This document shows positions 4,901-21,036 of a stretch of DNA of 28,542 nucleotides, one piece after another (within the stretch, counting starts at the first letter, position 1; every line of letters begins with the position of its first letter). The DNA is taken from NCBI GenBank assembly GCA_012646845.1, contig GCA_012646845.1_4707.3; one strand, given 5' to 3'. The translations under genes and the position numbers were made by a program. The notes under the pieces were generated by a model. It saw only the letters and a list, made by a program, of their open reading frames with translations, had not been told where the DNA came from and did not search any database. Source of the DNA: a phage.

Positions 4901-7900
4901 CGCGGCGCGGTTGAGATCTACAAACAGCTCGACAAAACGCCCGACGTTTACGTCAAGGGAGAATCAACGCCTCGTCTATTATCCATGGTGTTAGCGGCGG
5001 GTGGGTATTTCCGTCGCTCCGACGGACAAACCATCAAAAATCTTGAAGACATCGATGGCGATGTTGTTGATGCACAAGGTAACGTCGTACTTACGCTTGC
5101 CGACATGCAGAAAGGACTTGTCGATAAATACGGTAAAGCGATTCGGCGCTTAAAAGAAAAGCTTATCAACTTCGGTGTAAAAGCTTTTACGTTACCGTTA
5201 ACGCTGTTACGTAAGACAAAGGACATCCTTAAAACCCTTCCAGGTAAAACCGTTAACGGCCTACGACGGATGGGATTAAATTTCCAATCACCTGACGCAT
5301 TACTGGTGGGAACAACATCGAGCATGGTAGATCGTCTCGATGCTATTTACCAGCTTCTTGACCAACGTATGCCGGGTGGCGATAGGGATTATCGCGATTG
5401 GAATGGGGATGGTGTTCGAGAAGGATCGTTGGAAGACCTGAAACGTAAGCGTGAAGCCAAGGAAAACGGTAAGGATGGCACCGGCAAAGATTCCAATAAA
5501 GGAGAAGAAAAGGAGAAGAAACGAGGATTACTCGGAAGCCTTTTCGATATGCTTGGCGATACCGCATTAGGTAAACGACTCATGGCGAGTCCGCTTGGAA
5601 AAATTCTAGGTGGTCTTGGGGCGGTGTTAAGTGGCGGAGCATCGTTAACCGGATTGTTGGGTAAGGGTCTCATTAGTGGAACCGGCGCGCTAGTCAAGGG
5701 AGGACTAAGTGCGGCAGGATGGTTAGGACGTGGTGCGTTAATGGCGGGCGGGGCCGCATTGAACGCTGTTGGCGGGTTATCGGGATTAGGCGCATTCCTT
5801 ATATCACCTGTTGGGCTTGCTATTGCAGGTGGTGCATTGGCTGCTTATGCGGGATGGAAGATCTATCAGCATTTCGCCGAGAAGCCTGACCCGATGCAGA
5901 AGCTCCGTCTTATTGCGTACGGTGCAAAAGGGGACGATAAAGACTTCAATAAGAAGCTGCTTGCGACAGAAACATACCTCACCGACCACGTGGTTATGAC
6001 CGGGGATACCATCGGATTCGATCCGAAAGCCGACTCGGAAAAGATTCTCGAAATCTGGGAATTGTCTCTGGAAGATTCCGACCGAATGAACGAATGGAAA
6101 CGCTGGTATCTGCATCGTTTTATTCCTGTTTTCGCTCGTGCGTACAAACTCTGGAAAGAGCATATGCCGGACGAGAAGAAATACATGGAAATGGATAAAT
6201 ATCCGAACGGTGAGAACAAAGTGAAATGGTCGGAAGCGTTTATCTGGCCTTCCGATAGTCCTGACGGTCCGTATTACGTCGAAGCTAACCCGTTGGGTTC
6301 TTCTGGTGCGACGCGTTATATTGCTGGTCAAGACGTCAAAACCTTGATGCTGAAACAACTCGAAGCCATCAAGAAAGAGTACCAGAATCAGATCAAACAA
6401 TACTCTCATGATGAGGCTATTGCTGATTGGTCACGGATGTCTGACACACAACGTAAATCCGTTGCGCCTAACGCATTACGCGGTCAGAAAGCGTCGTTAC
6501 GTTTTAACGATAAACGTTATAACAGTGCTGGCGCTAAAGGACGACAGAAGCTTGACGCAACCGCGGTTATTGAAAGCGTAGACCGTCGTGGTAGAAAATG
6601 GGTCGCCGGTGGATACATCGATGAACTCACCAGTCTTCGTGTTCGTGCGTACGGTATTAAGGTTCCGTTGTTAAGTCAGATAAAAGTGCTGATGGAACTC
6701 GAAGACGCTGTAGAACCCGGTGTTGTCGCTGAAGGTAAAGGTGTTAAATACGGTGGCGATCTTGTCGCGCTCTACAAGAAATTCGCGACGAAGTTCGGAA
6801 GAGACGTTAACAGCAAGCAGGATCAGGATATCTGGTTTGCTTGGATGAATAACCGTTTCCTGCCCGTCTTTTTAACCTATTACCAGCACGTTAGCGACAT
6901 GGGTGGCCAAGGTCTTCTGTCCGATGTGGTACAGAACCTGAAAGACAGCCAACGCTGGGAGATCGGTGAGGCACTTGTCGCAACGCAATACCGTGATGAG
7001 AAAGGTGCACTCCAGCCTGTATGGTCCTGGAATAGTTGTGGTTTCTCCGGTACTGAAGCTAACACCACCAGCAGTTCAACAAAGAGCCAACTCGATCTGT
7101 TAAAAGAATATGCGGATAAAGAGAAGGTTCGTGAGAAGAACGCGGAAGCATCGCAAGAGGATACCGATAAATTATCGAAGATCCAAGAGCTGATGATGAA
7201 GCAGGCTGGGTACGAGAAGAAAGACGGTGTCTGGCAGAAGAAATCACGCATTACCGGTGGGATGAGTAACTCCGAAGCGAATTACAACCCCAATGGGAAT
7301 AGGGTAGGTGCAAGCAGCTTTACCGCTTCAGCTACTTCCAGTGCGGGATTGGGGTCAACCGGCGATCTTACCGGATTGCCTAACATGGGCTTACAGAAAC
7401 CTGCAACGGGACCAGGTCCCGAAGCTGGACGTCGTGCGCTTGTTAAATCCGCTGTGAAACGCGGTATTACCGATCCAATGGAAATGGCGATGTTCCTTGC
7501 AAACATCGAACATGAATCGGGGAACTACACTCACGTACGTGAGGGGAACTATAAGACACCAGAGCGTCTTAAACAGGTCTTCCCTTACAAATTCCGTGAC
7601 GTGCAGGATGCAGCGCAGACGATTAGCATGGGGCCGGAAGCGGTATTCGAACGCGTGTACGGTAATCGTAAAGACTTAGGGAACACGCAGAAAGGAGACG
7701 GTGCGAAGTATTTAGGACGTGGCTTCATTCAGGTTACCGGTAAAGCTAACTACGCTCGTCTGTCCAAGACCTTGAATAAAGATCTTGTCAGCGATCCATC
7801 ATACCTGGAAACGCCGGAAGGTGCGGCGGAAGGTAGTGTCGCGTGGTGGCTCAACCGAGGCAATGTGTTACGCGATCCTGCGAAACGGGGTGATGTGCGC

Positions 7901-8610: not shown

Positions 8611-8637
8611 GGGCGGGAGATTCCCGCCCTCTTCTTG
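8611..8637 (+). terminator. Hairpin terminator after the giant gene
   Basis: GGGCGGGAG-att-CCCGCCC stem-loop (8611-8629) followed by TCTTCTT, 12 nt after the TAG stop. Confidence 0.5.
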
Positions 8638-8648
8638 AGGAATGTTAC

Positions 8649-10790
8649 ATGGGTATTCTTGTTCAAAACGCCCTAATCACCAAACAGGCGTTTTTATTAC
8701 CAGGCGATAGCAGCACGCTGAGTGCCGACATGATTAAAGCGAGACATACACCGTATTCCTACGATAACGTCGATGATACCACTTTAGGCGGGAACTGGGT
8801 GCTTAACCCACCACCGCAATATACCAAATTTGCCGACATCAAAGAACGCCGACGTGCGGTTATGCCGGGATCAACGGGCATGGGCCGAGGCTATAGTGAA
8901 AGCATTAACAGCTTTAAAGAAGTCGTTACGTTACGATTCGGTAAACCTCGCTTTACAGGCGCAAGTATCTTCTTTACTGATTTCTACGATGCTGATGTTG
9001 CCGTAACGGTTAAAACCGGTCGCGATCCCGGTATTCTTTATTACGCAGCCAAAGCGTATACCACCGTTCTTTCTTACCTCACACCGCTACCTTACTTGTA
9101 TATGGTTGGACGTATTGGTCGATATTTCCTGGGTAAGCCTACCAGTCAATATTACTATCAAGTACCAACCATGCACGTGTATTGGGCATCTTTCCAGACA
9201 CTGGTAAACCAAACAGCGATAAACATGGGTCTTATCGCCGGTGCTGGTAAAGATAAAGGCTACGTGGAAGAAGGGGGTACCGTACTCCACCAATATTCAA
9301 TCGGTGGCCAGAACGTTGAAGAATTCATCAACTACGCCTCTAAGACGCTACCGGGGATTTATAAGAAAGGTGGTGGGATCGATATCTACCAGATCGCAAC
9401 ACGGCGTCAGCGCATACAGAACGCATGGGTACGTCGTATTCAATCCATGATGGAAAACGATTACTCGTCGTACGAGGAGTTCTGGAACGATCTTGATAAA
9501 CGACTTGATAGCGGAGCGTTTCCATCGGATGTAACCGGCCGTACGCTAACGCAGTATCTCGCCGACACACAGAAGTCTGCTGTTTACAGTGCGACAGCTG
9601 GTGATAATAAACAAACGATGGACGACCTTTTATTCGGAAGGGCCTCGTACACCAATAAAGATGCTGACGCCAACTTCAATGTCTCAGCGGCTACCTCCGA
9701 CGGAGGTACGTCAACACAGAGTCAGGGCACAACAGCCAATGTCGGCAATTCGACGTCAGGGACAACACAGGCTTCAACAGCAGCATCAACAGCTGGAGGC
9801 GCGAACGTACAGAGCAAAGGAATCGGGCAAACGAACGCAGCCGAAGAAGCTACGTTTCTTGATCTGATGGATGCTGAATTGGCCGACGGTGCTCAGTTCA
9901 TCAGTTTTCGAGTCGATTCTGTCACCAGTGTAACCGAAACGTTTTCAAACAGTGCTTCCGAAAGTTCTATCGCACAGACGATGAATAGCCGCGCGCAAGC
10001 GAACATCGAACGTCGTTTCACCCTCTCCGGTGGTAATACGGGTTGGGCTGTACTGGACGAAGCAATCAAAGCCGGTTCCGATCTCGTTAATGGCGCTATT
10101 TCCGGGATGGGTCTGGATGGTATTTTTGGTGCCTTCATGGGTTCCGGCTTCGCAGACATTCCGAAATTCTATTCTGGGTCGTCAGTAAGTCTACCGCGTG
10201 CCGATCTGACGATGGAATTGCGTTCCTGGAGTGGGGACCGCTGGTCGATCTTTACGAACCTCATGGTACCTCTTTTGGCTATCCTTGCAGGTGGTTTACC
10301 TCAGGCTACCGGTAAATCGTCCTACGGGATGCCGTTCATGTGTGAGTGTTATGTTCCCGGTAAAGTCCAGATTAAAATGGGCCTTATCGATAACATCACT
10401 GTGACGCGTCATGTTGGAAACGTACCATCAACACGCGAGCGTTTACCGTTGGGCATCGATGTCAGCTTCAGCGTTTATGACTTGTCGTCTATCGTCGCCA
10501 TGCCGATCACAACGACGGCCGCATCGATCGCAAAATTAGATCCTCGTGGCTTCTTAAGTGATCTTCTTGCTGATGATACTCCGCTCAACAACTATCTTGC
10601 TGTATTATCGGCATTGACACTTACGGAACAAGTTTACATGATTCCTGATTTAAGTCGTCGCATGCATAAAACCATGGCTGATATCGACAGTTTCTGGAGC
10701 AAAGGTAATTTTGCTAGCTGGTTGTCTGACACCATGCCAGGCAGGATAGCATCAGGGCTGTTATGGAAACGTACAGAACGACCGTTCTGA
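8649..10790 (+). CDS. Hypothetical protein (713 aa), possibly structural; contains S/T/G-rich low-complexity linker
   Basis: Long ORF with GAGGAA SD 6 nt upstream of the ATG. Same strand and immediately downstream of the giant protein gene. No recognisable catalytic motif. Confidence 0.75.
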   Translation: MGILVQNALITKQAFLLPGDSSTLSADMIKARHTPYSYDNVDDTTLGGNWVLNPPPQYTKFADIKERRRAVMPGSTGMGRGYSESINSFKEVVTLRFGKPRFTGASIFFTDFYDADVAVTVKTGRDPGILYYAAKAYTTVLSYLTPLPYLYMVGRIGRYFLGKPTSQYYYQVPTMHVYWASFQTLVNQTAINMGLIAGAGKDKGYVEEGGTVLHQYSIGGQNVEEFINYASKTLPGIYKKGGGIDIYQIATRRQRIQNAWVRRIQSMMENDYSSYEEFWNDLDKRLDSGAFPSDVTGRTLTQYLADTQKSAVYSATAGDNKQTMDDLLFGRASYTNKDADANFNVSAATSDGGTSTQSQGTTANVGNSTSGTTQASTAASTAGGANVQSKGIGQTNAAEEATFLDLMDAELADGAQFISFRVDSVTSVTETFSNSASESSIAQTMNSRAQANIERRFTLSGGNTGWAVLDEAIKAGSDLVNGAISGMGLDGIFGAFMGSGFADIPKFYSGSSVSLPRADLTMELRSWSGDRWSIFTNLMVPLLAILAGGLPQATGKSSYGMPFMCECYVPGKVQIKMGLIDNITVTRHVGNVPSTRERLPLGIDVSFSVYDLSSIVAMPITTTAASIAKLDPRGFLSDLLADDTPLNNYLAVLSALTLTEQVYMIPDLSRRMHKTMADIDSFWSKGNFASWLSDTMPGRIASGLLWKRTERPF

Positions 10791-12507: not shown

Positions 12508-13019
12508 AATACACCAGTGTACTGACTGAGTGCGAAGGTTAGGAGTTCGCAACAGTCTCTCGCTAGTTTCCTTGTTTTGCGTAATCCATAAGCCGCATCC
12601 AAATCGTCACGTTCCGCTAGCGCGTCTAACCACGTCGCAAGTATGCGTCCATACTCGATAACGTCACGCATGAGAACGTCGAACTGGATAACACGACCAT
12701 CGGCATCAGCAAGCCAACGATTGAATGTGATTTGTGGTGCTAGTATTGCATATGTTCTCTCCTCTAATGCGATTATGTTTATGTTGCCTTCGTTATCGAA
12801 CGCTTGATGCCAACGGCGAAGGTCAAGCATCAACGACTCAGCGTCCATATACCACAACGGTAAATACGTTTTACGTGCAACGCGTATATCGTAGATGTTG
12901 TGAACCCAGGACGTTGTTTTGTAAAGCAACAAGAGTTCGTTTAACCGTTGCCTATCATCTTGAAACGTCTTCCTTTTATAACGTTGGAACGCACGCCTCA
13001 AGAAAAAGCGATGTAACAT
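12504..13019 (-). CDS. Hypothetical protein (171 aa)
   Basis: ORF with ATG at 13019, heading a minus-strand block. A divergent intergenic region lies upstream. Confidence 0.65.
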   Translation of the reverse strand: MLHRFFLRRAFQRYKRKTFQDDRQRLNELLLLYKTTSWVHNIYDIRVARKTYLPLWYMDAESLMLDLRRWHQAFDNEGNINIIALEERTYAILAPQITFNRWLADADGRVIQFDVLMRDVIEYGRILATWLDALAERDDLDAAYGLRKTRKLARDCCELLTFALSQYTGVL

Positions 13020-13087
13020 GGCATCACCTATGTATCATTCTTGCAGGCATCAATGAAGCCATCACAAGAAGGTAACGTTATACGTCG

Positions 13088-13111
13088 CCTTCATGACAGT
13101 CATCATGAAGG
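13088..13111. promoter_or_regulatory. Perfect inverted repeat (9-bp arms, 6-bp spacer) in a divergent intergenic region; candidate operator
   Basis: CCTTCATGA-cagtca-TCATGAAGG between the minus-strand start at 13019 and the plus-strand start at 13153. A TAATAT hexamer follows at 13112-13117. Confidence 0.35.
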
Positions 13112-13152
13112 TAATATAGTCCTGTTATTTTTTTCAATACGGAGAATGTAAA

Positions 13153-13782
13153 ATGAGCGAATACGGTGTTGTCCCCGTAGATGATGAACCGCAAGAGGCA
13201 CCCGATAAATTCGAGGTCCGTCTTGACGAAACCCGTAACATCCGTCAACGATTTATTCAACGTCTTGAAATGCTGTTAGATAGCGAATTCAAAGATTTTG
13301 AGCGTAACCCCGGTGCAGATAATAAAGCCATTGTCGACGTCGAAAACGTCGACCGGATAGGTAAGCTGTTGTTGAAATCGTTGGGTGATAACGATAAAGT
13401 CGACTTAACGTTGAAACGTATCAGCGCCGACCAGGCTATGAACGACAGCGCATTGAAAACAGCACAGGCCCTAACCGAAACCATGCTGCGCCGCTTAGGT
13501 CAGATAGATGAACATCCTCTCGCAGCAGGGGCTGTTTACGATGGCGAAGTCGTGAAGTCAGTTACGCCTGAAGAACGCGATCGTCGACTTGGTTTTGCAT
13601 CGTTGGAAGAGTTTAATAGCAAGGAGTTTTCACCAGGCGTTCTCATCCAGGGACGTGTCGAAGAAACCAGTGATGCTTTCTACGCTAGAATGGCTCAACT
13701 GACGGAGTCGGTTCGTGAGGAGGTGTCTCAGAAGATGGCTGCAGATCATCAGTCTTCGGAGGCGTCACACGAGGAGGGATAA
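13153..13782 (+). CDS. Hypothetical acidic protein (209 aa)
   Basis: ATG at 13153 with GGAG SD about 8 nt upstream. Glu/Asp-rich. The 3' end overlaps the convergent gene's 3' end by about 98 nt. Confidence 0.65.
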   Translation: MSEYGVVPVDDEPQEAPDKFEVRLDETRNIRQRFIQRLEMLLDSEFKDFERNPGADNKAIVDVENVDRIGKLLLKSLGDNDKVDLTLKRISADQAMNDSALKTAQALTETMLRRLGQIDEHPLAAGAVYDGEVVKSVTPEERDRRLGFASLEEFNSKEFSPGVLIQGRVEETSDAFYARMAQLTESVREEVSQKMAADHQSSEASHEEG

Positions 13783-14473
13783 AATAACTGAACCATTTTA
13801 TCCCAAAGAACCGCATGAACATCACGGGTGCGTTAGAAAGTTCGATTGCTTCGTAAAGTTTGTCGTAAGCCAGATCGGAATCAGGGATGGTTTCGCTGAT
13901 TCGTCTGGCGACAACCAACACGTTACAAATCGGATTGTCTTCTAACAGCATCTGATTGGGGAGATGCCAGCGTTTGAAATCGTAAAAGAACATTGCGTTA
14001 TATGTCTTACGGATTTCTGATGGATGCAGTGTGGCCGGATGACGGTAAATAATCTCGACGCTATCTTGCGCACCGAGGTATTGCTGAATACCTTCTTTTA
14101 ATGCTGTCGCTGCATCTCCCACAAATTCAAACGGGTACGTGTTCACGTGAACCGAAAAATCCGGCGTAGCAATCCCCGTTAAGCGGTCTTTCATGTAATC
14201 CGCGACTACATAACACAGCCGCCACATCAACTCCGTCGGGATACATTTATCGAGAATGGTCTCGTCGATATTTGCCATCGCGTCCTTAAACTCTTCGTAA
14301 GTATAAGTAACGCCCGCCTGCTTCTCCGGCTCCAGGTTATAGGGTCGGTAATGCCATTTCTTCCCCCACTTTCTGATAGCCTCCGGATCCAACGTTGTTG
14401 CTACCGCCATTTCGATATCAAGCAATGCTTCGAGTTCTACGTACACCGTCACCAATGCTGCACTTCCAGTCAT
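13685..14473 (-). CDS. Hypothetical protein (262 aa)
   Basis: ATG at 14471-14473 overlaps the upstream gene's TAA stop by 1 nt (TAATG coupling). Last gene of a six-gene minus-strand block. Confidence 0.7.
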   Translation of the reverse strand: MTGSAALVTVYVELEALLDIEMAVATTLDPEAIRKWGKKWHYRPYNLEPEKQAGVTYTYEEFKDAMANIDETILDKCIPTELMWRLCYVVADYMKDRLTGIATPDFSVHVNTYPFEFVGDAATALKEGIQQYLGAQDSVEIIYRHPATLHPSEIRKTYNAMFFYDFKRWHLPNQMLLEDNPICNVLVVARRISETIPDSDLAYDKLYEAIELSNAPVMFMRFFGIKWFSYFIPPRVTPPKTDDLQPSSETPPHEPTPSVEPF

Positions 14474-15177
14474 TATTGCTCTCCAGCTTCACCGGTTAAC
14501 ATCTGCATATCGGGAGACGTTTTAATTTTCTTCTCGTACTCTTTTGTTTGTTTGAATACCAATTCACCGATTTCTTCCAATTCTTCAACGGTGACGGTAT
14601 GCAAATAAAGCAGCGGAATAATCCAGGTATTCGCACGAAGCATGTCCTGAATATCGTCAACGGTGGGTAACTCCGTAAAGAACTGTTCGTCTACCGCAAA
14701 TAAATCCCGTGCGATACCATCCACCAGTTTATGATCGCTTTCATGGATCCATGCAAAACTTCCAGCAAGATGATCGATAAGCATATCGATGTCATCGACC
14801 GTTGAGAACACTGTACGGCGAACATGCGTTGTGAGGTCCATCGTAAAACCCATTAACGAAGGGGTTTCCTCAGAACGGAGTTCACGCCAAAGACGGAGCA
14901 TGTTTTCGGGGATAAACAAATCATGGATGAACGTTACGCTAAATTTCGTAATCCAATCACGAATTGTCGCACCTCTGGAATACTGTTGTGGTGGGGAATA
15001 CAAATACACCCAACGTTTCGTAAACGCGATAACTTCCTTTCGCATCGTCGCATCTAAAACAAGCACGTAACGATCGGAAGCAAGCTCTTCTAACAAAAGC
15101 TCGAACGCTGTATCGCTCTCTGGGGAGAACGATCGTTTTATTTCTGCGATACGTCGTGATAGCCGACTACGTAACAT
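14473..15177 (-). CDS. Hypothetical protein (234 aa)
   Basis: ATG at 15175-15177 lies 2 nt downstream of the upstream gene's stop. No recognisable motif. Confidence 0.7.
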   Translation of the reverse strand: MLRSRLSRRIAEIKRSFSPESDTAFELLLEELASDRYVLVLDATMRKEVIAFTKRWVYLYSPPQQYSRGATIRDWITKFSVTFIHDLFIPENMLRLWRELRSEETPSLMGFTMDLTTHVRRTVFSTVDDIDMLIDHLAGSFAWIHESDHKLVDGIARDLFAVDEQFFTELPTVDDIQDMLRANTWIIPLLYLHTVTVEELEEIGELVFKQTKEYEKKIKTSPDMQMLTGEAGEQ

Positions 15178-15179
15178 AA

Positions 15180-15854
15180 TTAGCCCTCATCAAGGTTATT
15201 CTGGAGATGCATTGCGGTGAGAATAACACCAACTGCCGAAACCGATTTTGCCTTGCTGTCTTCGGGTAGCTGTTCCAAGCTTACGGTACCTGTTTCTAAC
15301 AGCATGCGGTTCATCGCGTTGAACTTCTTATCATCGCCACCACGAGCCTGCATTAACTCTCGGTTCACGTTTGGCATCGATCGTCCTAACGTTGCTTGCA
15401 TTTCCGGTTGACTCCAAGTGGAACCTTTACTATCACCTGTCGGCTGATTGGTGAGCTGGTCCTTGGTGTTGTTGTTTTTCGGAATCGATATTTTAGCACT
15501 CAGCGTTTCGGCTTGTCGGCGGTTTGGAATCAGGTACAATCTGGTTGGGCGATCACGAAGCACCAATTGTCCTGTTTTCTGATCGGTGAGATAAACGCGT
15601 TGGAAGAAAGGGAAACCGTATTTCTTGCCGACTTCCAGTGCGCGTTTTATCGTCACCTCGTTTTTGTTCATATTGGGTACCCAGATGGGTAGAATCTCTT
15701 TCTTATCCCGACATAAACGCATATACGCATCAAACGTCTCATCATCGATTTCAGCAAAACGTTTTTTGTAAATAGCGTAGGTCGGACTCGATCCCCCCAC
15801 CAAGTCTTTGATATACCCAAGAATGAATTTTTCTGCTGCAGCGCGGTTGGACAT
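15180..15854 (-). CDS. Hypothetical protein (224 aa)
   Basis: ATG at 15852-15854 with AGGAGA SD that overlaps the stop of the upstream SLOG-like gene. Confidence 0.7.
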   Translation of the reverse strand: MSNRAAAEKFILGYIKDLVGGSSPTYAIYKKRFAEIDDETFDAYMRLCRDKKEILPIWVPNMNKNEVTIKRALEVGKKYGFPFFQRVYLTDQKTGQLVLRDRPTRLYLIPNRRQAETLSAKISIPKNNNTKDQLTNQPTGDSKGSTWSQPEMQATLGRSMPNVNRELMQARGGDDKKFNAMNRMLLETGTVSLEQLPEDSKAKSVSAVGVILTAMHLQNNLDEG

Positions 15855-15863
15855 AAACGTCTC

Positions 15864-16190
15864 CTATTGTCGTGTCTGTTGCGGAAATACCCGAAACACC
15901 TGGACGATGATGTTCTTGTCCTCGCGGTTGGCGATGTCAATCATGTGTTTTGTTCCAGGACTTTTGAAATCCCAGAACGCAACTAGATGCGTAATGACAT
16001 CGCCCATCCACTCGTTGCGTCTGAATCCAGCACCTTTACGATAAGGGCCATCCCAATCGGCAGGAAACGTGGTGTATTTAAACCCGTAATCCTTCGCATA
16101 GCGGCGCACATGCAAATCAGCACCTGAACGCGCACCGCCAGCAATGAGATGAACTTTGTCGTGAGGGAGGTTATGTAACATCTGGTTCAT
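15864..16190 (-). CDS. SLOG/DUF2493-like small Rossmann-fold protein (DprA/LOG-related)
   Basis: Motifs HLIAGGARSGADLHVRRYAKDYG ... FPADWDGPYRKGAGFRRNEWM ... LVAFWDFKSPGTKHMIDIA match the DUF2493/SLOG pattern as I recall it. Track start is TTG 16205; I prefer ATG 16188-16190 (MNQMLHNL...). Confidence 0.6.
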   Translation of the reverse strand: MNQMLHNLPHDKVHLIAGGARSGADLHVRRYAKDYGFKYTTFPADWDGPYRKGAGFRRNEWMGDVITHLVAFWDFKSPGTKHMIDIANREDKNIIVQVFRVFPQQTRQ

Positions 16191-16258
16191 ACGCTTTTCG
16201 AACAAGGGATAATCATCCCAGTAGCGTGATCCTGATACCCCTACACGATAGGGTTCGC

Positions 16259-16579
16259 TTATCTTCCACCGCGCAATGACTTTACGTTGCGTGCAATAAA
16301 GGGCGCAACGTAATCACGGAAATTATGGATCCATCCTTTAATGGGTTGGTTGTCTAGTAAGCACTCTCGCACCGAGAACGTACTTACTTCTAGTACACCG
16401 AACTGCAATCGCCAATAACGATTGATTTCGGCTTGGGCGTGTTCTAAGGTCATGTACTCAGGGACACGAGCCAGCAGATCGTGTTTAAATTGCTCGGCAA
16501 TCGCTGGCTGATGCGATGCAATTGTCTGTGCGATAACATCAACCAGTTCGTGCGCGTGCTTGATAGCAGGTGCGGTCAT
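16259..16579 (-). CDS. Hypothetical protein (106 aa)
   Basis: ORF whose ATG (16577-16579) lies inside the last codons of the upstream gene (about 13-nt overlap). Confidence 0.55.
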   Translation of the reverse strand: MTAPAIKHAHELVDVIAQTIASHQPAIAEQFKHDLLARVPEYMTLEHAQAEINRYWRLQFGVLEVSTFSVRECLLDNQPIKGWIHNFRDYVAPFIARNVKSLRGGR

Positions 16580-16591
16580 TTATTCAGCCTT

Positions 16592-18082
16592 TTATTTTTT
16601 GCTTGGACGATTTAATGCAGGTACCGGGTTCTTTGGTTGCTTTGTCTTTTCATCCATCCAGTACGGGAAGTACTCACCGGTACGCATACGCAATAAGTCC
16701 ATTGTGGACAAGAACGGTAGCGGGTTAGGATCATCCAGATATGTCCAGTAACCGCGTGTGTTTAACAACACATCCCAATCGAACCCTTTTGCTTTAAGAT
16801 CGTCGTACAGTTCCTGCGGGGTGCAATACAATTGCGGATTTTCGTAAACCTCTTGACGCCAGAGATTATGCATCTGACATAGCTCCGACGTAATTTCCAG
16901 AGCACGCTGTAAATACTCATCTTCTTCGCAGAGAGAACGAATGGTCGTGCGCTGCAACGCAACATCCGGATAAATATCCAAATACACCGTTGAAGCACCA
17001 TCAGCTGACTTACCACCTGACGCATGCATACCCCAACCACGCATCCAATCTTTATCACGCAGGTAGTGGTATTCCGTTAATGATGGTTTAACCCCTTCGC
17101 TCTGACTAACCACAATCGGGAACGGTAAGCCAGTGGGTCCGTTTTTAGCACGCATGTTGAAGACTTGGATCATCTGTAGATCGGTATCACCAATAAGGTT
17201 ATCACCAGGCCCACGCGGATAAAGAACGCGTTTATCGGCGTTCTGAAGGATCGTCAGTTTATCGATTTTCCAGAGGTTGTTCGTATAAAACGTGAAGCGT
17301 TCCGGGACGTTCTTAAACTTCTCATCGCCCTTAAACCCTTTCAGTTTTCGTACCGGCTGCTGTCCCGGCATACCACCAACGTTTACGCCATCGCCGAGGT
17401 GGGCGGTCATGGTAATGTAGATACCTGCTGACGCTGTGAGTACCGGCATCTGTGATAGAATCTGGCTTTTCGCTGCTGCCGAACGCATCGCTTCAGCATT
17501 CAGTTTTGCACCACCCGCGGTTTCTTTATCAAACAGTGCGTCAACGGCATCGATTGGTAATCCAGAGAAACTGTCGATGAGTACAACGGTTGGTAACCAC
17601 CAGGTATAGTTCTCGCCATGTTTATTAATGAACGGAACGGCTTTGCGTTGGGATTTATCTTTGACCTTGTCGTCACGGAATTTCTTAATCGCATCAAACC
17701 AAATGTTACCACTCATCTGAACAGCATCGGTGATAAACACACGTTCTTCTTCGAAAAGATCGACACCCGCGATATTAGACATGTTCATCGCAAGCGTTAA
17801 GATACGCGTTGTCGTTAACGACATTTCTGTATCGTAAACGCTACTGTTGCTGTTCGCGTAACGATCGATAACACGTAACAAGCGAAACATTATGAACGTG
17901 GTTTTGTTCATGTTGCCGCGAGCGCCTGCGCCCTCAACAAGCATCATACCGCCGTTACAAATGCTTTCACCATGTTTACCGACATAGTACCGACCGCCAG
18001 ATGTGGGAATATCCATTAAGCAGCCAATGTTGAGATTAAAACGCATCTCTTCACCGGGAGAAAGGTACTTATTAAGATTCAT
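16592..18082 (-). CDS. Divergent RecA/UvsX-like protein (496 aa) with non-canonical P-loop; assignment tentative
   Basis: Motif-level resemblance to the RecA core: hhhhDS Walker-B-like VVLIDSFSGLP, followed by ...AEAMRSAAAKSQILSQ... and ITMTAHLGDG (compare RecA VVVDSVAAL...MRKLAGNL...IFINQIR). The expected Walker A region reads EGAGARGNMNKTTF, which is not G-x4-GK[ST]. ATG at 18082 with AAGGAG upstream. Confidence 0.45.
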   Translation of the reverse strand: MNLNKYLSPGEEMRFNLNIGCLMDIPTSGGRYYVGKHGESICNGGMMLVEGAGARGNMNKTTFIMFRLLRVIDRYANSNSSVYDTEMSLTTTRILTLAMNMSNIAGVDLFEEERVFITDAVQMSGNIWFDAIKKFRDDKVKDKSQRKAVPFINKHGENYTWWLPTVVLIDSFSGLPIDAVDALFDKETAGGAKLNAEAMRSAAAKSQILSQMPVLTASAGIYITMTAHLGDGVNVGGMPGQQPVRKLKGFKGDEKFKNVPERFTFYTNNLWKIDKLTILQNADKRVLYPRGPGDNLIGDTDLQMIQVFNMRAKNGPTGLPFPIVVSQSEGVKPSLTEYHYLRDKDWMRGWGMHASGGKSADGASTVYLDIYPDVALQRTTIRSLCEEDEYLQRALEITSELCQMHNLWRQEVYENPQLYCTPQELYDDLKAKGFDWDVLLNTRGYWTYLDDPNPLPFLSTMDLLRMRTGEYFPYWMDEKTKQPKNPVPALNRPSKK

Positions 18083-18180
18083 TGGGTAAAAACTCCTTCG
18101 ATTCTTCGACTAATTCTTAGTGTTCAGAGAATAACTATTTTTAGTTAAGACTGACAACCACTATTTCCACGAGGACCATC
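18083..18180. promoter_or_regulatory. Divergent intergenic region (probable promoters for both flanking genes)
   Basis: 98-bp AT-rich non-coding gap between divergent starts at 18082 (-) and 18181 (+). Promoter consensus cannot be assigned by eye. Confidence 0.3.
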
Positions 18181-19023
18181 ATGCATAAATTTACCATTCC
18201 TGAAGACCCGATTACACTGCAGACCCTTTGGGATTCACATCGTGCTCTATCAATGGAAGGCTTTGCACAAGACTTCGCTTCACTTACCGCGGTAACGAAT
18301 CTTCGTAGTATGTTTACTAACGGTAAGAAGTTCGTTACCGACTGGCTTAAGAAACGTGATGTGACGGTTTATCCTAAAGTCTTCGATGACCTCGATACCA
18401 TCTTTAGCAACAACGCTTACAGCGATCTCATTGGGTATCGTGCTTTTATTCCGAATGGTTTAAATGCACCGATGTCAGATTATGTTGTTGCTCTAACCCA
18501 GAGCCTGGATAGCGTAATTGGCACCATCCTACCCGATTTAGATAAGTTGACCGTAACGTGCGCTAAAGCCGTCAATGACGTCAACTTCCGTCGTAGTAGT
18601 GGTATGGCTCAAACACTACCTAAAAACGACCCAGAGAACGTTTTAGAGACGTTACGTGCGATGTTCAAACGTGGGACGGTAACACAGACCACTGTAGGTC
18701 GTGCATATAAGAACGAAGACGATATCCGTCAGATCGGAAAAGATCTGGATACTTCCCGCATCCGTGCGCTCGACGTTAATCCTAAAGACGTGAAGAAAGC
18801 AATCGAACGTTTCATGGAAGTGGCTGACCGCTTAACCGAAATCCTGGTTCAAGACTACAACGAAGGTGCGGTGAGCAACGCGATGATTCGCGATATTAGT
18901 GACGCTATCTACCAAACAGCCAAGCAGGCTGAACTGTATGCGTTTCTCGTGAACGCTTTGGCTGAGGCGATCACTGCATATAACGACACTTGGGACGCTG
19001 TTAAAAAGAACGCGAAAAAATAA
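18181..19023 (+). CDS. Hypothetical protein (280 aa)
   Basis: ATG at 18181 with GAGGA SD 5 nt upstream. Followed by a bidirectional hairpin. Confidence 0.75.
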   Translation: MHKFTIPEDPITLQTLWDSHRALSMEGFAQDFASLTAVTNLRSMFTNGKKFVTDWLKKRDVTVYPKVFDDLDTIFSNNAYSDLIGYRAFIPNGLNAPMSDYVVALTQSLDSVIGTILPDLDKLTVTCAKAVNDVNFRRSSGMAQTLPKNDPENVLETLRAMFKRGTVTQTTVGRAYKNEDDIRQIGKDLDTSRIRALDVNPKDVKKAIERFMEVADRLTEILVQDYNEGAVSNAMIRDISDAIYQTAKQAELYAFLVNALAEAITAYNDTWDAVKKNAKK

Positions 19024-19509: not shown

Positions 19510-21036
19510 TTACTCCAACACATAACGTGGGTTACTGTATATGTTAGCCCATATACCAACGTCGTCCCCCGACTCAATAATCACGGCGAAACGAAACGCA
19601 ACATCGGACTCGCGATATGTTACCGCGTACGCTTTCGTTTCCGGCGATGCTAAATAGCTCAAGTTCAGACGTTGAGGCAGGTCTAACCCCAAGGACATGG
19701 TACAAGACGTAACACCCTGCTTATCGGGGGTCAGTCTGTAATTCACATCCACTTTCAGGCTTTTCGTAACCTGCGTAATCGCACTATGCACTTTGGTAAC
19801 CGTTTTGCCTTTCTTATCCTTTTCTGTTTCGAAAAGAACGTCGGTGATTTCGGTTACGACCAGACGCGGTGTGGATTCGCGGTTAGCGTCAAGCCATTCA
19901 TCCAGTAACGTCTTTAAGAAGTTCAAGGAATCAATCGCACGCCAAGCAAGGTTAGGCGGATTGCATGCTTCCATTAAAATGGCTGTGTTCGATCCACCTA
20001 GCGGAAGATGCACGCTCTTACCGAGGCCTGTCGGACGCATCGTAAGATCGCACTCACCCTCAAGAATATCGCGATGATGTTGACGATGATGAAGGTTATC
20101 CGTGTATGCAATATACACTGACTCCGTTGTCCCATGCTCTAATACCCGAGATGCATGCGTACGCATAATCTCAATAGCATCATCCGGCTTGCTTAAATAG
20201 ATAACACTATACGCGCTATCACTAATCCTTTTCCCTAACTCAAGACGTCCCTTGTTGTCTTTATCGGTGTTACCACCGAAATAGATGTAGCGGCCATCTT
20301 TCGCACGCTCTTGCTGCTGATTGGTGGTAAAGTAGCAGCGTGAGAACGTAAAGAACGGACTTATTTCCGGTTCGGGACTCCAATACCCCTTAGCCGGAAG
20401 TTCGCGACGTATTTGGGTTCTTACAGCCCAGTCCTGGTTTTGTGATAGATATGTTCCACGCGTTGCCAACATATCCGCACGTTCGTTACCAACATTGCCC
20501 TCATGTCCAGGAACGTAGCGCAGCGAAATATCGATAGCGTCGCGCTTCGCATCCCTTATCGCACTATCGAGTTTCCGCCACCGTTCCGCATTCATTAACG
20601 GTTTATTGTCGGATTTAACCCAGTTGTTCTCTCGCCAGTTAGCAAGATGGTTGGTGGCACCTACAACAACATATTGGCTGTCCGACAACAGCTGGATCCG
20701 TTTTGCCCCCTTTGCTTTTCCAAGTTCAATCGCACGTATTGCAGCATCCAACTCAGCCTGATTGTTCGTTACGTTGAAACCCAAAGCCTCTAACTCATCC
20801 ACGTATTCCTTGGGTTCGACCAGCACGGCGTCTTTAGGAAAGTTGAGTTTAGGGTCAACATAACCGTATTGTGTTGGTTTGGGCTTTCCACTTTTTGAAG
20901 GTTCCAAGGTGCCTTTTATTTCTTTCACCATATCGTAGGTGTAGCCATGCACGCCATAGCCACCGTACCCACTCGATGTTGGACGGGATCCTCCATCACA
21001 GTAGAAAACGGCACCAAGCTCAGTATTTCCTGCCAT
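19510..21036 (-). CDS. RNase HI domain protein fused to a ~310-aa C-terminal domain of unknown function
   Basis: N-terminal ~190 aa carry RNase HI signatures: AVFYCDGGS...GYGGYG (compare FTDGSC..GPGGYG), TNNQAELDAAIRAIE, LLSDSQYVV, NW.ENNW, VPGHEGNVGNERADMLA (compare VKGHAGHPENERCDELA). Start is ambiguous between ATG 21048 and ATG 21036; the latter has GAGG about 6 nt upstream. Confidence 0.8.
   Translation of the reverse strand: MAGNTELGAVFYCDGGSRPTSSGYGGYGVHGYTYDMVKEIKGTLEPSKSGKPKPTQYGYVDPKLNFPKDAVLVEPKEYVDELEALGFNVTNNQAELDAAIRAIELGKAKGAKRIQLLSDSQYVVVGATNHLANWRENNWVKSDNKPLMNAERWRKLDSAIRDAKRDAIDISLRYVPGHEGNVGNERADMLATRGTYLSQNQDWAVRTQIRRELPAKGYWSPEPEISPFFTFSRCYFTTNQQQERAKDGRYIYFGGNTDKDNKGRLELGKRISDSAYSVIYLSKPDDAIEIMRTHASRVLEHGTTESVYIAYTDNLHHRQHHRDILEGECDLTMRPTGLGKSVHLPLGGSNTAILMEACNPPNLAWRAIDSLNFLKTLLDEWLDANRESTPRLVVTEITDVLFETEKDKKGKTVTKVHSAITQVTKSLKVDVNYRLTPDKQGVTSCTMSLGLDLPQRLNLSYLASPETKAYAVTYRESDVAFRFAVIIESGDDVGIWANIYSNPRYVLE

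Follow-up and report, generated by a model that had tools for sequence, protein, structure and literature searches.

Six consecutive genes on the minus strand of a phage contig (GCA_012646845.1_4707.3, assembly GCA_012646845.1; the whole stretch of 28,542 nucleotides (nt) is the window referred to below) raise the question of whether a tightly packed gene block of this kind acts as one functional module. The genes lie at positions 13685-18082, and a preliminary description had named them the best candidate in the window for an undescribed system. The six open reading frames (ORFs) are present in the sequence where they had been placed. The reading that we prefer, with a probability of about 0.8, is that they represent the gp193-gp198 segment of a chimallivirus closely resembling Escherichia phage vB_EcoM_Goslar, that this segment is part of a conserved core genome block of the family, and that it consists of two adjacent units and not of a single-purpose system.

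Identity and synteny of the block

Goslar is a nucleus-forming jumbo phage of the family Chimalliviridae. Positions 13000-19000 of the window align with it free of gaps at 94.9% nucleotide identity, and the six minus-strand ORFs are collinear with HOV27_gp193-gp198 (GenBank Goslar_00243-00238), with the same order, strand and lengths and with proteins that are 97-99.8% identical. In the Pseudomonas phage PhiKZ, the six genes correspond to gp152-gp147. Lengths below are given in amino acids (aa).

16592-18082, minus strand: UvsX/RecA-like recombinase, 496 aa (Goslar gp193; PhiKZ gp152, Nlp1; core gene cg49)
16259-16579, minus strand: 106-aa protein, PHROG 6181 (Goslar gp194; PhiKZ gp150; PhiPA3 gp173)
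15864-16262, minus strand: YAcAr-family SLOG protein, 132 aa if read from ATA 16262 (Goslar gp195; revised bounds)
15180-15854, minus strand: C-terminal fragment of the virion RNA polymerase beta subunit (beta-C), 224 aa (Goslar gp196; PhiKZ gp149; SPN3US gp218; core gene cg50)
14473-15177, minus strand: fast-evolving 234-aa protein (Goslar gp197; PhiKZ gp148 family)
13685-14473, minus strand: chimallivirus-specific core protein cg51, 262 aa (Goslar gp198; PhiKZ gp147; SPN3US gp219; PCH45 gp76)

The window phage differs from Goslar by about 5% nucleotide changes, mainly synonymous, and by a 234-aa gene that is one codon shorter, giving a TAATG junction with the cg51 gene where Goslar has a 4-nt overlap. 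The nearest genome is a contig from IMG/VR, which is closer than Goslar (99.7% identity across the 300 nt compared at the junction). The ratios of synonymous to non-synonymous codon changes relative to Goslar were 72:1 for the 496-aa gene, 22:3 for the 106-aa gene, 5:1 for the SLOG gene, 34:2 for the 224-aa gene, 25:10 for the 234-aa gene and 43:7 for the 262-aa gene, indicating purifying selection on all six.

Whether the block is kept as a unit in related phages had been proposed as a check, and synteny was compared across 14 named chimalliviruses, including PhiKZ and phages of Vibrio and Aeromonas. The hosts in this set were Pseudomonas, Erwinia, Salmonella, Serratia, Ralstonia, Klebsiella, Aeromonas, Vibrio and Photobacterium, together with a sea-squirt sample. 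The common order is RNase H, a small gene, a vertex-complex head protein on the opposite strand, the RecA-like gene, a variable slot, beta-C, a gene that we call the mid gene (the 234-aa gene in the window) and cg51. The RecA-like, beta-C and cg51 genes keep this order on one strand in 14 of 14 phages, while the mid gene is absent from SPN3US and JM-2012. Loss of synteny, which the preliminary description had named as a refutation of the module, was not observed.

This arrangement is a published one. Core genome block 6 lists cg49, cg50 and cg51 in that order (Prichard et al. 2023, PMC10299810 Table S3), and the window carries orthologues of all three, ordered on one strand, with cg48 (plus strand) and the RNase H gene cg47 (minus strand) on the upstream flank. 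The window thus shares the order and orientation of cg47, cg48, cg49, cg50 and cg51 with block 6 as it occurs in PhiKZ (gp155-gp147) and RAY (gp147-gp156), and it differs in the interval between cg49 and cg50 and in the mid gene. PhiKZ has a DUF488 gene and then the 106-aa gene in that interval, RAY and Ea35-70 have a small protein, a Macro protein and a 293-aa SLOG protein, and the window phage has the 106-aa gene and then the 132-aa SLOG gene; the mid gene encodes 234 aa in the window phage versus 135-186 aa elsewhere.

The recombinase and polymerase gene products

The 496-aa protein is 99.8% identical to Goslar gp193 and matches the UvsX-like PHROG 97 at 2.4e-32. With a profile of 14 orthologues, the top matches in the PDB were T4 UvsX (3io5), DMC1, Rad51 and RadA, all weak (best E=0.03), in an alignment that spans the Walker A motif (G..N.fKT versus GPSKSFKS), where N57 and K60 are invariant in the 14 sequences. 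Profile-level similarity together with the Walker A lysine places the protein in the RecA/UvsX family, with single PDB E values that are each weak (at least 0.03). It shares with T4 UvsX and bacterial RecA the RecA-fold ATPase core and the conserved Walker A lysine, and differs from them in the very low similarity to solved recombinases (E=0.03), in its extra length of about 100 aa, with a C-terminal region specific to chimalliviruses, and in being selectively imported into the protein-shelled phage nucleus. Goslar gp193 localises with the phage nucleus (PMC9891218), and knock-down of ChmA (chimallin) lowers both its transcript and its protein (10.1101/2023.09.20.558163). In PhiKZ, genetic evidence identifies the orthologue Nlp1 as a fitness-conferring recombinase required against CBASS NucC; like T4 uvsX, it is dispensable but confers fitness. 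The UvsX orthologue of PCH45 is nuclear and non-essential. The first of the two units is read as this recombinase followed by a variable accessory slot, here occupied by the 106-aa and YAcAr SLOG genes; the recombinase enters the phage nucleus by import and there supports recombination-dependent replication and repair.

The 224-aa protein is 99.1% identical to Goslar gp196 and matches PHROG 3233 at 1.2e-65. A profile of 15 orthologues matched residues 1160-1313 of Escherichia coli RpoB (E=5.3e-5), with other bacterial RpoB proteins next, and the protein is therefore identified as the C-terminal fragment of a split beta subunit. The alignment to the RpoB C-terminal region includes the pattern GQ..G....G..(F/S).(E)......G......E....(K/R)(S/G)(D/G)D. 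Unlike RpoB, the phage protein is a free-standing polypeptide of 224 aa, one of five pieces of a split polymerase, which is packaged in the capsid and injected. This identification also revises the earlier statement that four of the six products carry no recognisable motif: it stands for the three true orphans (106, 234 and 262 aa) and not for the 224-aa protein. A weak single-sequence match of the 224-aa protein to TssB/HsiB was treated as chance.

Past work on Goslar found gp196 to be one of five virion RNA polymerase (vRNAP) subunits present in virions, and a fusion to superfolder green fluorescent protein (sfGFP-gp196) enters cells along with the injected DNA. SPN3US gp218 and RAY gp154 behave in the same way with respect to vRNAP assembly and virion packaging. 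The second unit is read as a tightly packed tricistron of beta-C, the fast-evolving 234-aa protein and cg51; its beta-C product joins four further subunits in a polymerase that is carried in the capsid and, once injected, transcribes early genes.

Gene junctions

The junctions, read directly from the minus-strand sequence, are close. The start of the 106-aa gene had been placed inside the 3' end of the RecA-like gene, which the sequence contradicts: the RecA-like stop codon is TAA 16594-16592 and the ATG lies at 16579, leaving a 12-nt spacer that contains AAGG, with an in-frame TAA immediately 5' of the ATG. The other tight junctions were confirmed. The Shine-Dalgarno (SD) motif of the 224-aa gene overlaps the SLOG stop (TAG 15866-15864 within TAGGAG, with a 9-nt gap to ATG 15854), 2 nt separate the 224-aa stop (15182-15180) from the ATG of the 234-aa gene (15177), and the 234-aa stop and 262-aa start have TAATG in common (14475-14471). 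The junction between the 106-aa and SLOG genes measures 68 nt as annotated, yet the SLOG frame is open and homologous across it. With that frame taken into account, all five junctions show close spacing and SD-like motifs (12 nt, an ATAA overlap, 9 nt, 2 nt and a 1-nt overlap).

Such spacing is not special to the block, because neighbouring same-strand genes in Goslar are equally compact, with gaps of -4, 2, 3 and 9 nt. The short gaps and overlaps, together with SD motifs that lie within the gene before, are most probably a sign of ordinary polycistronic expression during the second, nucleus-dependent transcription programme. Scans of the window for sigma-70 promoters and terminators gave nothing above the shuffled expectation, in a model that is irrelevant to transcription by phage polymerases, and neither the Rfam nor the tRNA scan of the window gave a match. 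Across the 14 phages, the distance 3' of the RecA-like gene runs from an overlap up to 257 nt, with an annotated terminator at that point in Miami.

One module or two adjacent units

The view that the six genes form one dedicated module, such as a DNA-damage or recombination system around the RecA-like protein, is very improbable in light of these results. The location of all six genes on one strand with short junctions agrees with it, but the junctions of neighbouring same-strand genes are just as tight. The three core genes keep their order family-wide, whereas the 106-aa, SLOG and 234-aa genes are non-core and are missing or replaced in many family members, their positions holding unrelated genes or nothing, which argues against a single module. 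Essentiality also varies from gene to gene: in PhiKZ, orf150 and orf151 tolerate transposons and orf147-149 do not, and UvsX is dispensable in both PCH45 and PhiKZ. A SLOG/DprA-like gene beside a RecA-like gene recalls the loading of RecA by DprA, and RAY gp153 (labelled 'DprA') is nuclear, as is UvsX; the 224-aa product, however, is a polymerase beta fragment that ends in the virion and not in a repair pathway. The products thus have different destinations, the RecA homologue in the phage nucleus and the 224-aa subunit inside virions, from which it is injected. Nor is the block undescribed, since it falls within published core genome block 6. What had been proposed as a new functional module is a known, conserved piece of chimallivirus genome architecture.

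Several points weigh against the division into two units. Mass spectrometry of Goslar virions lists gp193 (11 peptides) and gp194 (1 peptide) beside gp196 (10.64898/2026.04.21.720040), which makes the separation of nuclear from virion products less sharp; gp193 and gp194 may have been packaged or may have been carried over into the preparation. Three of the six products have no assigned function. That beta-C, the mid gene and cg51 stay tightly linked across the family might point to a function common to the three. Co-transcription and translational coupling of the block are inferred from spacing only, and any role of the three orphan proteins is likewise putative.

cg51 and the 234-aa protein

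The 262-aa protein cg51 matches PHROG 3328 at 1.2e-22, forms a single homologous family across all 14 loci, and is marked as unique to chimallin-encoding phages (Prichard et al., PMC10299810 Table S3). No relative was found in Pfam, NCBIfam, PADLOC or the PDB, profile search included, and a weak single-sequence match to poly(A) polymerase was treated as chance. The 234-aa gene evolves fastest in the block, with the highest non-synonymous fraction, and its product had no match in Pfam, PHROG, NCBIfam, PADLOC or the PDB. An iterative hidden Markov model (HMM) search tied it to the gene directly after beta-C in PhiKZ (gp148), PhiPA3, Ea35-70, 2050HW, RSL2 and pEa54, while an HH-type comparison did not connect the mid genes of the PhiKZ/Goslar group with their counterparts in the Miami/D9/PDCC-1 group. 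For both the 262-aa and the 234-aa proteins, a word-indexed protein search returned 1-3 near-identical sequences, also with a concatenated profile of seven distant orthologues, and AlphaFold models built from near-identical sequences only had mean predicted local distance difference test (pLDDT) values of 41.2 and 40.2 and were unusable.

The last three genes could form a functional trio, in which the 234-aa protein and cg51 are non-virion helpers, co-translated with beta-C, in the folding, assembly or encapsidation of the split virion polymerase. The genes overlap or lie within 9 nt of each other in 12 of the 14 phages, but the mid gene is absent from two of them, and the HH-type comparison among the families of the block showed no relation between the three. 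Genetic data point both ways: SPN3US gp219 is essential (amber mutant am30) and not listed as structural, PhiKZ orf147, orf148 and orf149 are all nearly insertion-free (1 transposon read in orf147 versus 2991 in orf150 and 1380 in orf151), and PhiKZ 147 scored as a hit in an antisense screen, whereas PCH45 gp76 is non-essential even though the vRNAP is expected to be required. The distribution of cg51 also argues against helpers of the polymerase, as nucleus-less phages with a multisubunit RNA polymerase (msRNAP), such as PBS1, lack it, so that cg51 tracks the nucleus and not the polymerase. On balance we regard the trio as unlikely, and we judge equally improbable the wider proposal that the beta-C/gp197-like/cg51 tricistron encodes an undescribed non-virion function specific to nucleus-forming phages. 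If cg51 does work with the split polymerase, it could act, for example, in assembly, in routing into nucleus-docked capsids or in the hand-over from the early infection vesicle. Two adjacent units, with cg51 in the second, remain the preferred reading.

An N-terminal motif of cg51, LLD-T-R, has an aspartate that is invariant in the 14 phages and an arginine found in 13 of 14. The window phage and Goslar carry glutamate in place of the arginine (LLDIE; codons 19-21 of the 262-aa gene, 14409-14417, minus strand), possibly a change particular to this lineage at a residue with a function. In Serratia phage 2050HW (L006), cg51 is apparently split into ORFs at 7076-7204 and 7377-7778, about 170 nt apart; a frameshift, an intron or a sequencing error could account for this.

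The interval between the recombinase and polymerase genes

For the 106-aa protein, exhaustive searching with HMMER recovered 75 relatives, about 100 aa in length, with the conserved family motif N..FWR..LG...T...REC...W..NF. Its profile recovered orthologues between the RecA-like and beta-C genes of PhiKZ (gp150), PhiPA3 (gp173), 2050HW, PCH45 and JM-2012, and no match in Pfam, NCBIfam, PADLOC or the PDB; a weak single-sequence match to MinE was treated as chance. Like the 234-aa protein, the 106-aa protein is an orphan of lineage-restricted distribution. The 106-aa family and cg51 are conserved, have genetic phenotypes and have no fold assigned, which makes them targets for structure prediction with deep alignments.

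The SLOG protein belongs to the YAcAr (YspA/cpYpsA-related) family PF10686, with relatives in 390 phage records from many unrelated groups, where they are often labelled 'GTP-binding domain' or 'DprA-like'. Read with 24 upstream codons, it scores 52.4 bits against PF10686 (threshold 28.2) over profile positions 2-64 of 66, compared with 34.3 bits over positions 18-64 only for the annotated form. It differs from DprA/Smf in having no match to the DprA family PF02481 at E<=0.01, and the 2050HW homologue reaches 16.5 bits against a PF02481 threshold of 29.6.

The content of the slot varies. The window phage and 2050HW have the 106-aa and YAcAr genes; PhiKZ and PhiPA3 have DUF488-N3a and 106-aa genes; Ea35-70 has a gene with no assigned identity, a Macro gene and a 293-aa SLOG gene; RSL2 has YAcAr alone; and single unrelated small genes occur elsewhere. 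The slot between the recombinase and the polymerase fragment thus collects YAcAr-SLOG, Macro and DUF488-N3a genes (loci L003, L004, L006, L009, L010 and L011). PhiKZ gp151 is a DUF488-N3a protein with a weak DUF4326 match. In Serratia phage PCH45 (L007), an unannotated 380-nt gap between the 106-aa homologue and beta-C (8620-8999) falls where the accessory genes of other phages lie.

These contents could mean that the interval is a variable islet for counter-defence or nucleotide signalling and not a set of recombination accessories, with the SLOG protein binding or processing NAD+/ADP-ribose (ADPr)-derived or other nucleotide signals, and with a like role for the Macro and DUF488 genes that occupy this position in other chimalliviruses. 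We consider this possible but doubtful as a whole. YAcAr-SLOG genes in the Goslar-like phages, 2050HW, RSL2, pEa54 and Ea35-70, the Macro gene of Ea35-70 and the DUF488-N3a (weakly DUF4326) genes of PhiKZ and PhiPA3 fit the prediction that jumbo-phage YAcAr, Macro and DUF4326 proteins act on NAD+/ADPr signals (Iyer et al. 2021), but no phage YAcAr protein has a known ligand or activity. The window SLOG protein passes the YAcAr threshold and not that of PF02481, while the SLOG-containing protein of RAY is nuclear and has been read as DprA-like. Laboratory dispensability of PhiKZ orf150 and orf151 is as expected of accessory genes, and the low divergence of the SLOG gene described below is compatible with recent exchange; against these, no PADLOC or other defence-related match was found. 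The slot behaves as a hotspot and is useful when seeking phage counter-defence genes.

Start codon of the SLOG gene

Two features bear on the 5' end of the SLOG gene.

15864-16190 or 15864-16205, minus strand: SLOG gene as conventionally read; the Goslar gp195 annotation uses the ATG equivalent to window 16190
16174-16300, minus strand: nucleotide-invariant junction stretch, reaching from the end of the 106-aa gene through the ATAA overlap of stop and start into the N-terminal SLOG codons

The SLOG frame is open for 41 codons 5' of the annotated ATG 16190 and has no ATG, GTG or TTG upstream of TTG 16205. The 24 codons from ATA 16262 read ISEPYRVGVSGSRYWDDYPLFEKR (16191-16262, minus strand) and code for the domain's strand 1 and GSR loop; a protein started at this ATA would begin (M/I)SEPYRVGVSGSR. 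Homologues in other phages align from residues 1-9, and the 2050HW homologue starts M-x-K-YKIMVSGCR at the same position. All ten Goslar-like genomes compared have ATA at this codon, overlapping the 106-aa stop as ATAA. The gain in Pfam score, the alignment of homologues, the 2050HW start and the conserved ATA show the upstream part to be coding; the SLOG gene of Goslar-like phages appears to be annotated 24 codons too short, which is a new point. The window SLOG thereby differs from its YAcAr relatives in having no canonical start, its frame opening at an ATA that overlaps the upstream stop.

Substitution patterns agree with these boundaries. The substitutions at 16257 and 16233, in the stretch annotated as intergenic, are synonymous in the SLOG frame, and those at 16295-16316 are all silent in the 106-aa frame but would change the residue in the SLOG frame. 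Relative to the locus L017, which is more distant than Goslar, the ratio of synonymous to non-synonymous changes in the SLOG gene is 13:2, indicating purifying selection. The SLOG region (window 15860-16300) is also about threefold less diverged than its flanks, at 1.5% versus 5.1% for Goslar and 4.2% versus about 13% for L017. Within it, the 127 nt at 16174-16300 show zero differences between the window and L017, against 13% divergence of the block overall, and among the ten Goslar-like genomes this stretch has four variant sites (16295, 16257, 16233 and 16185), each synonymous in its assigned frame. The low divergence would be explained either by additional constraint acting at the level of DNA or RNA or by recent exchange of the cassette among Goslar-like phages.

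Initiation or re-initiation of SLOG translation at the AUA is somewhat favoured on these sequence data, because no RNA structure stands out at the junction (fold z-scores -0.66 and 0.08) and no canonical slippery heptamer is present; fusion by frameshifting or a decaying gene is less likely. A programmed -1 frameshift joining the 106-aa and SLOG frames was rated unlikely. The junction has no X_XXY_YYZ heptamer, only A_AAG at 16283-16280, and no stimulatory RNA structure; none of the 75 relatives of the 106-aa protein is fused to SLOG; the two genes are separate in 2050HW, with an ATG; and, upstream of 16295, substitutions alter the residue when read in the SLOG frame. The SLOG start is a minor but experimentally accessible candidate for non-canonical initiation in a phage that infects E. 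coli.

Flanking genes

The genes on either side of the block are as follows.

18181-19023, plus strand: capsid inner vertex-binding-complex protein, divergent neighbour (Goslar gp192; PhiKZ gp153; cg48; PHROG 4682 at 5e-24)
19510-21036, minus strand: RNase H gene, cg47 (PF00075 RNase_H, 1.9e-25)
13153-13782, plus strand: 209-aa gene, convergent (Goslar gp199; synonymous to non-synonymous changes relative to Goslar 31:8)

The vertex-complex role of gp192 comes from the Goslar annotation and a published cryo-electron microscopy structure. At the other end of the block, the 3' ends of the 262-aa gene and the convergent 209-aa gene overlap by 98 nt (13685-13782, both strands). The overlap also occurs in Goslar and in L017 (83 nt) and is smaller in SPN3US (53 nt) and in PCH45 and RSL2 (4 nt). 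It encodes the Pro/Thr/Ser-rich tail of the 262-aa protein, which is without a counterpart in most orthologues, and the 98-nt region is the most divergent stretch relative to L017.

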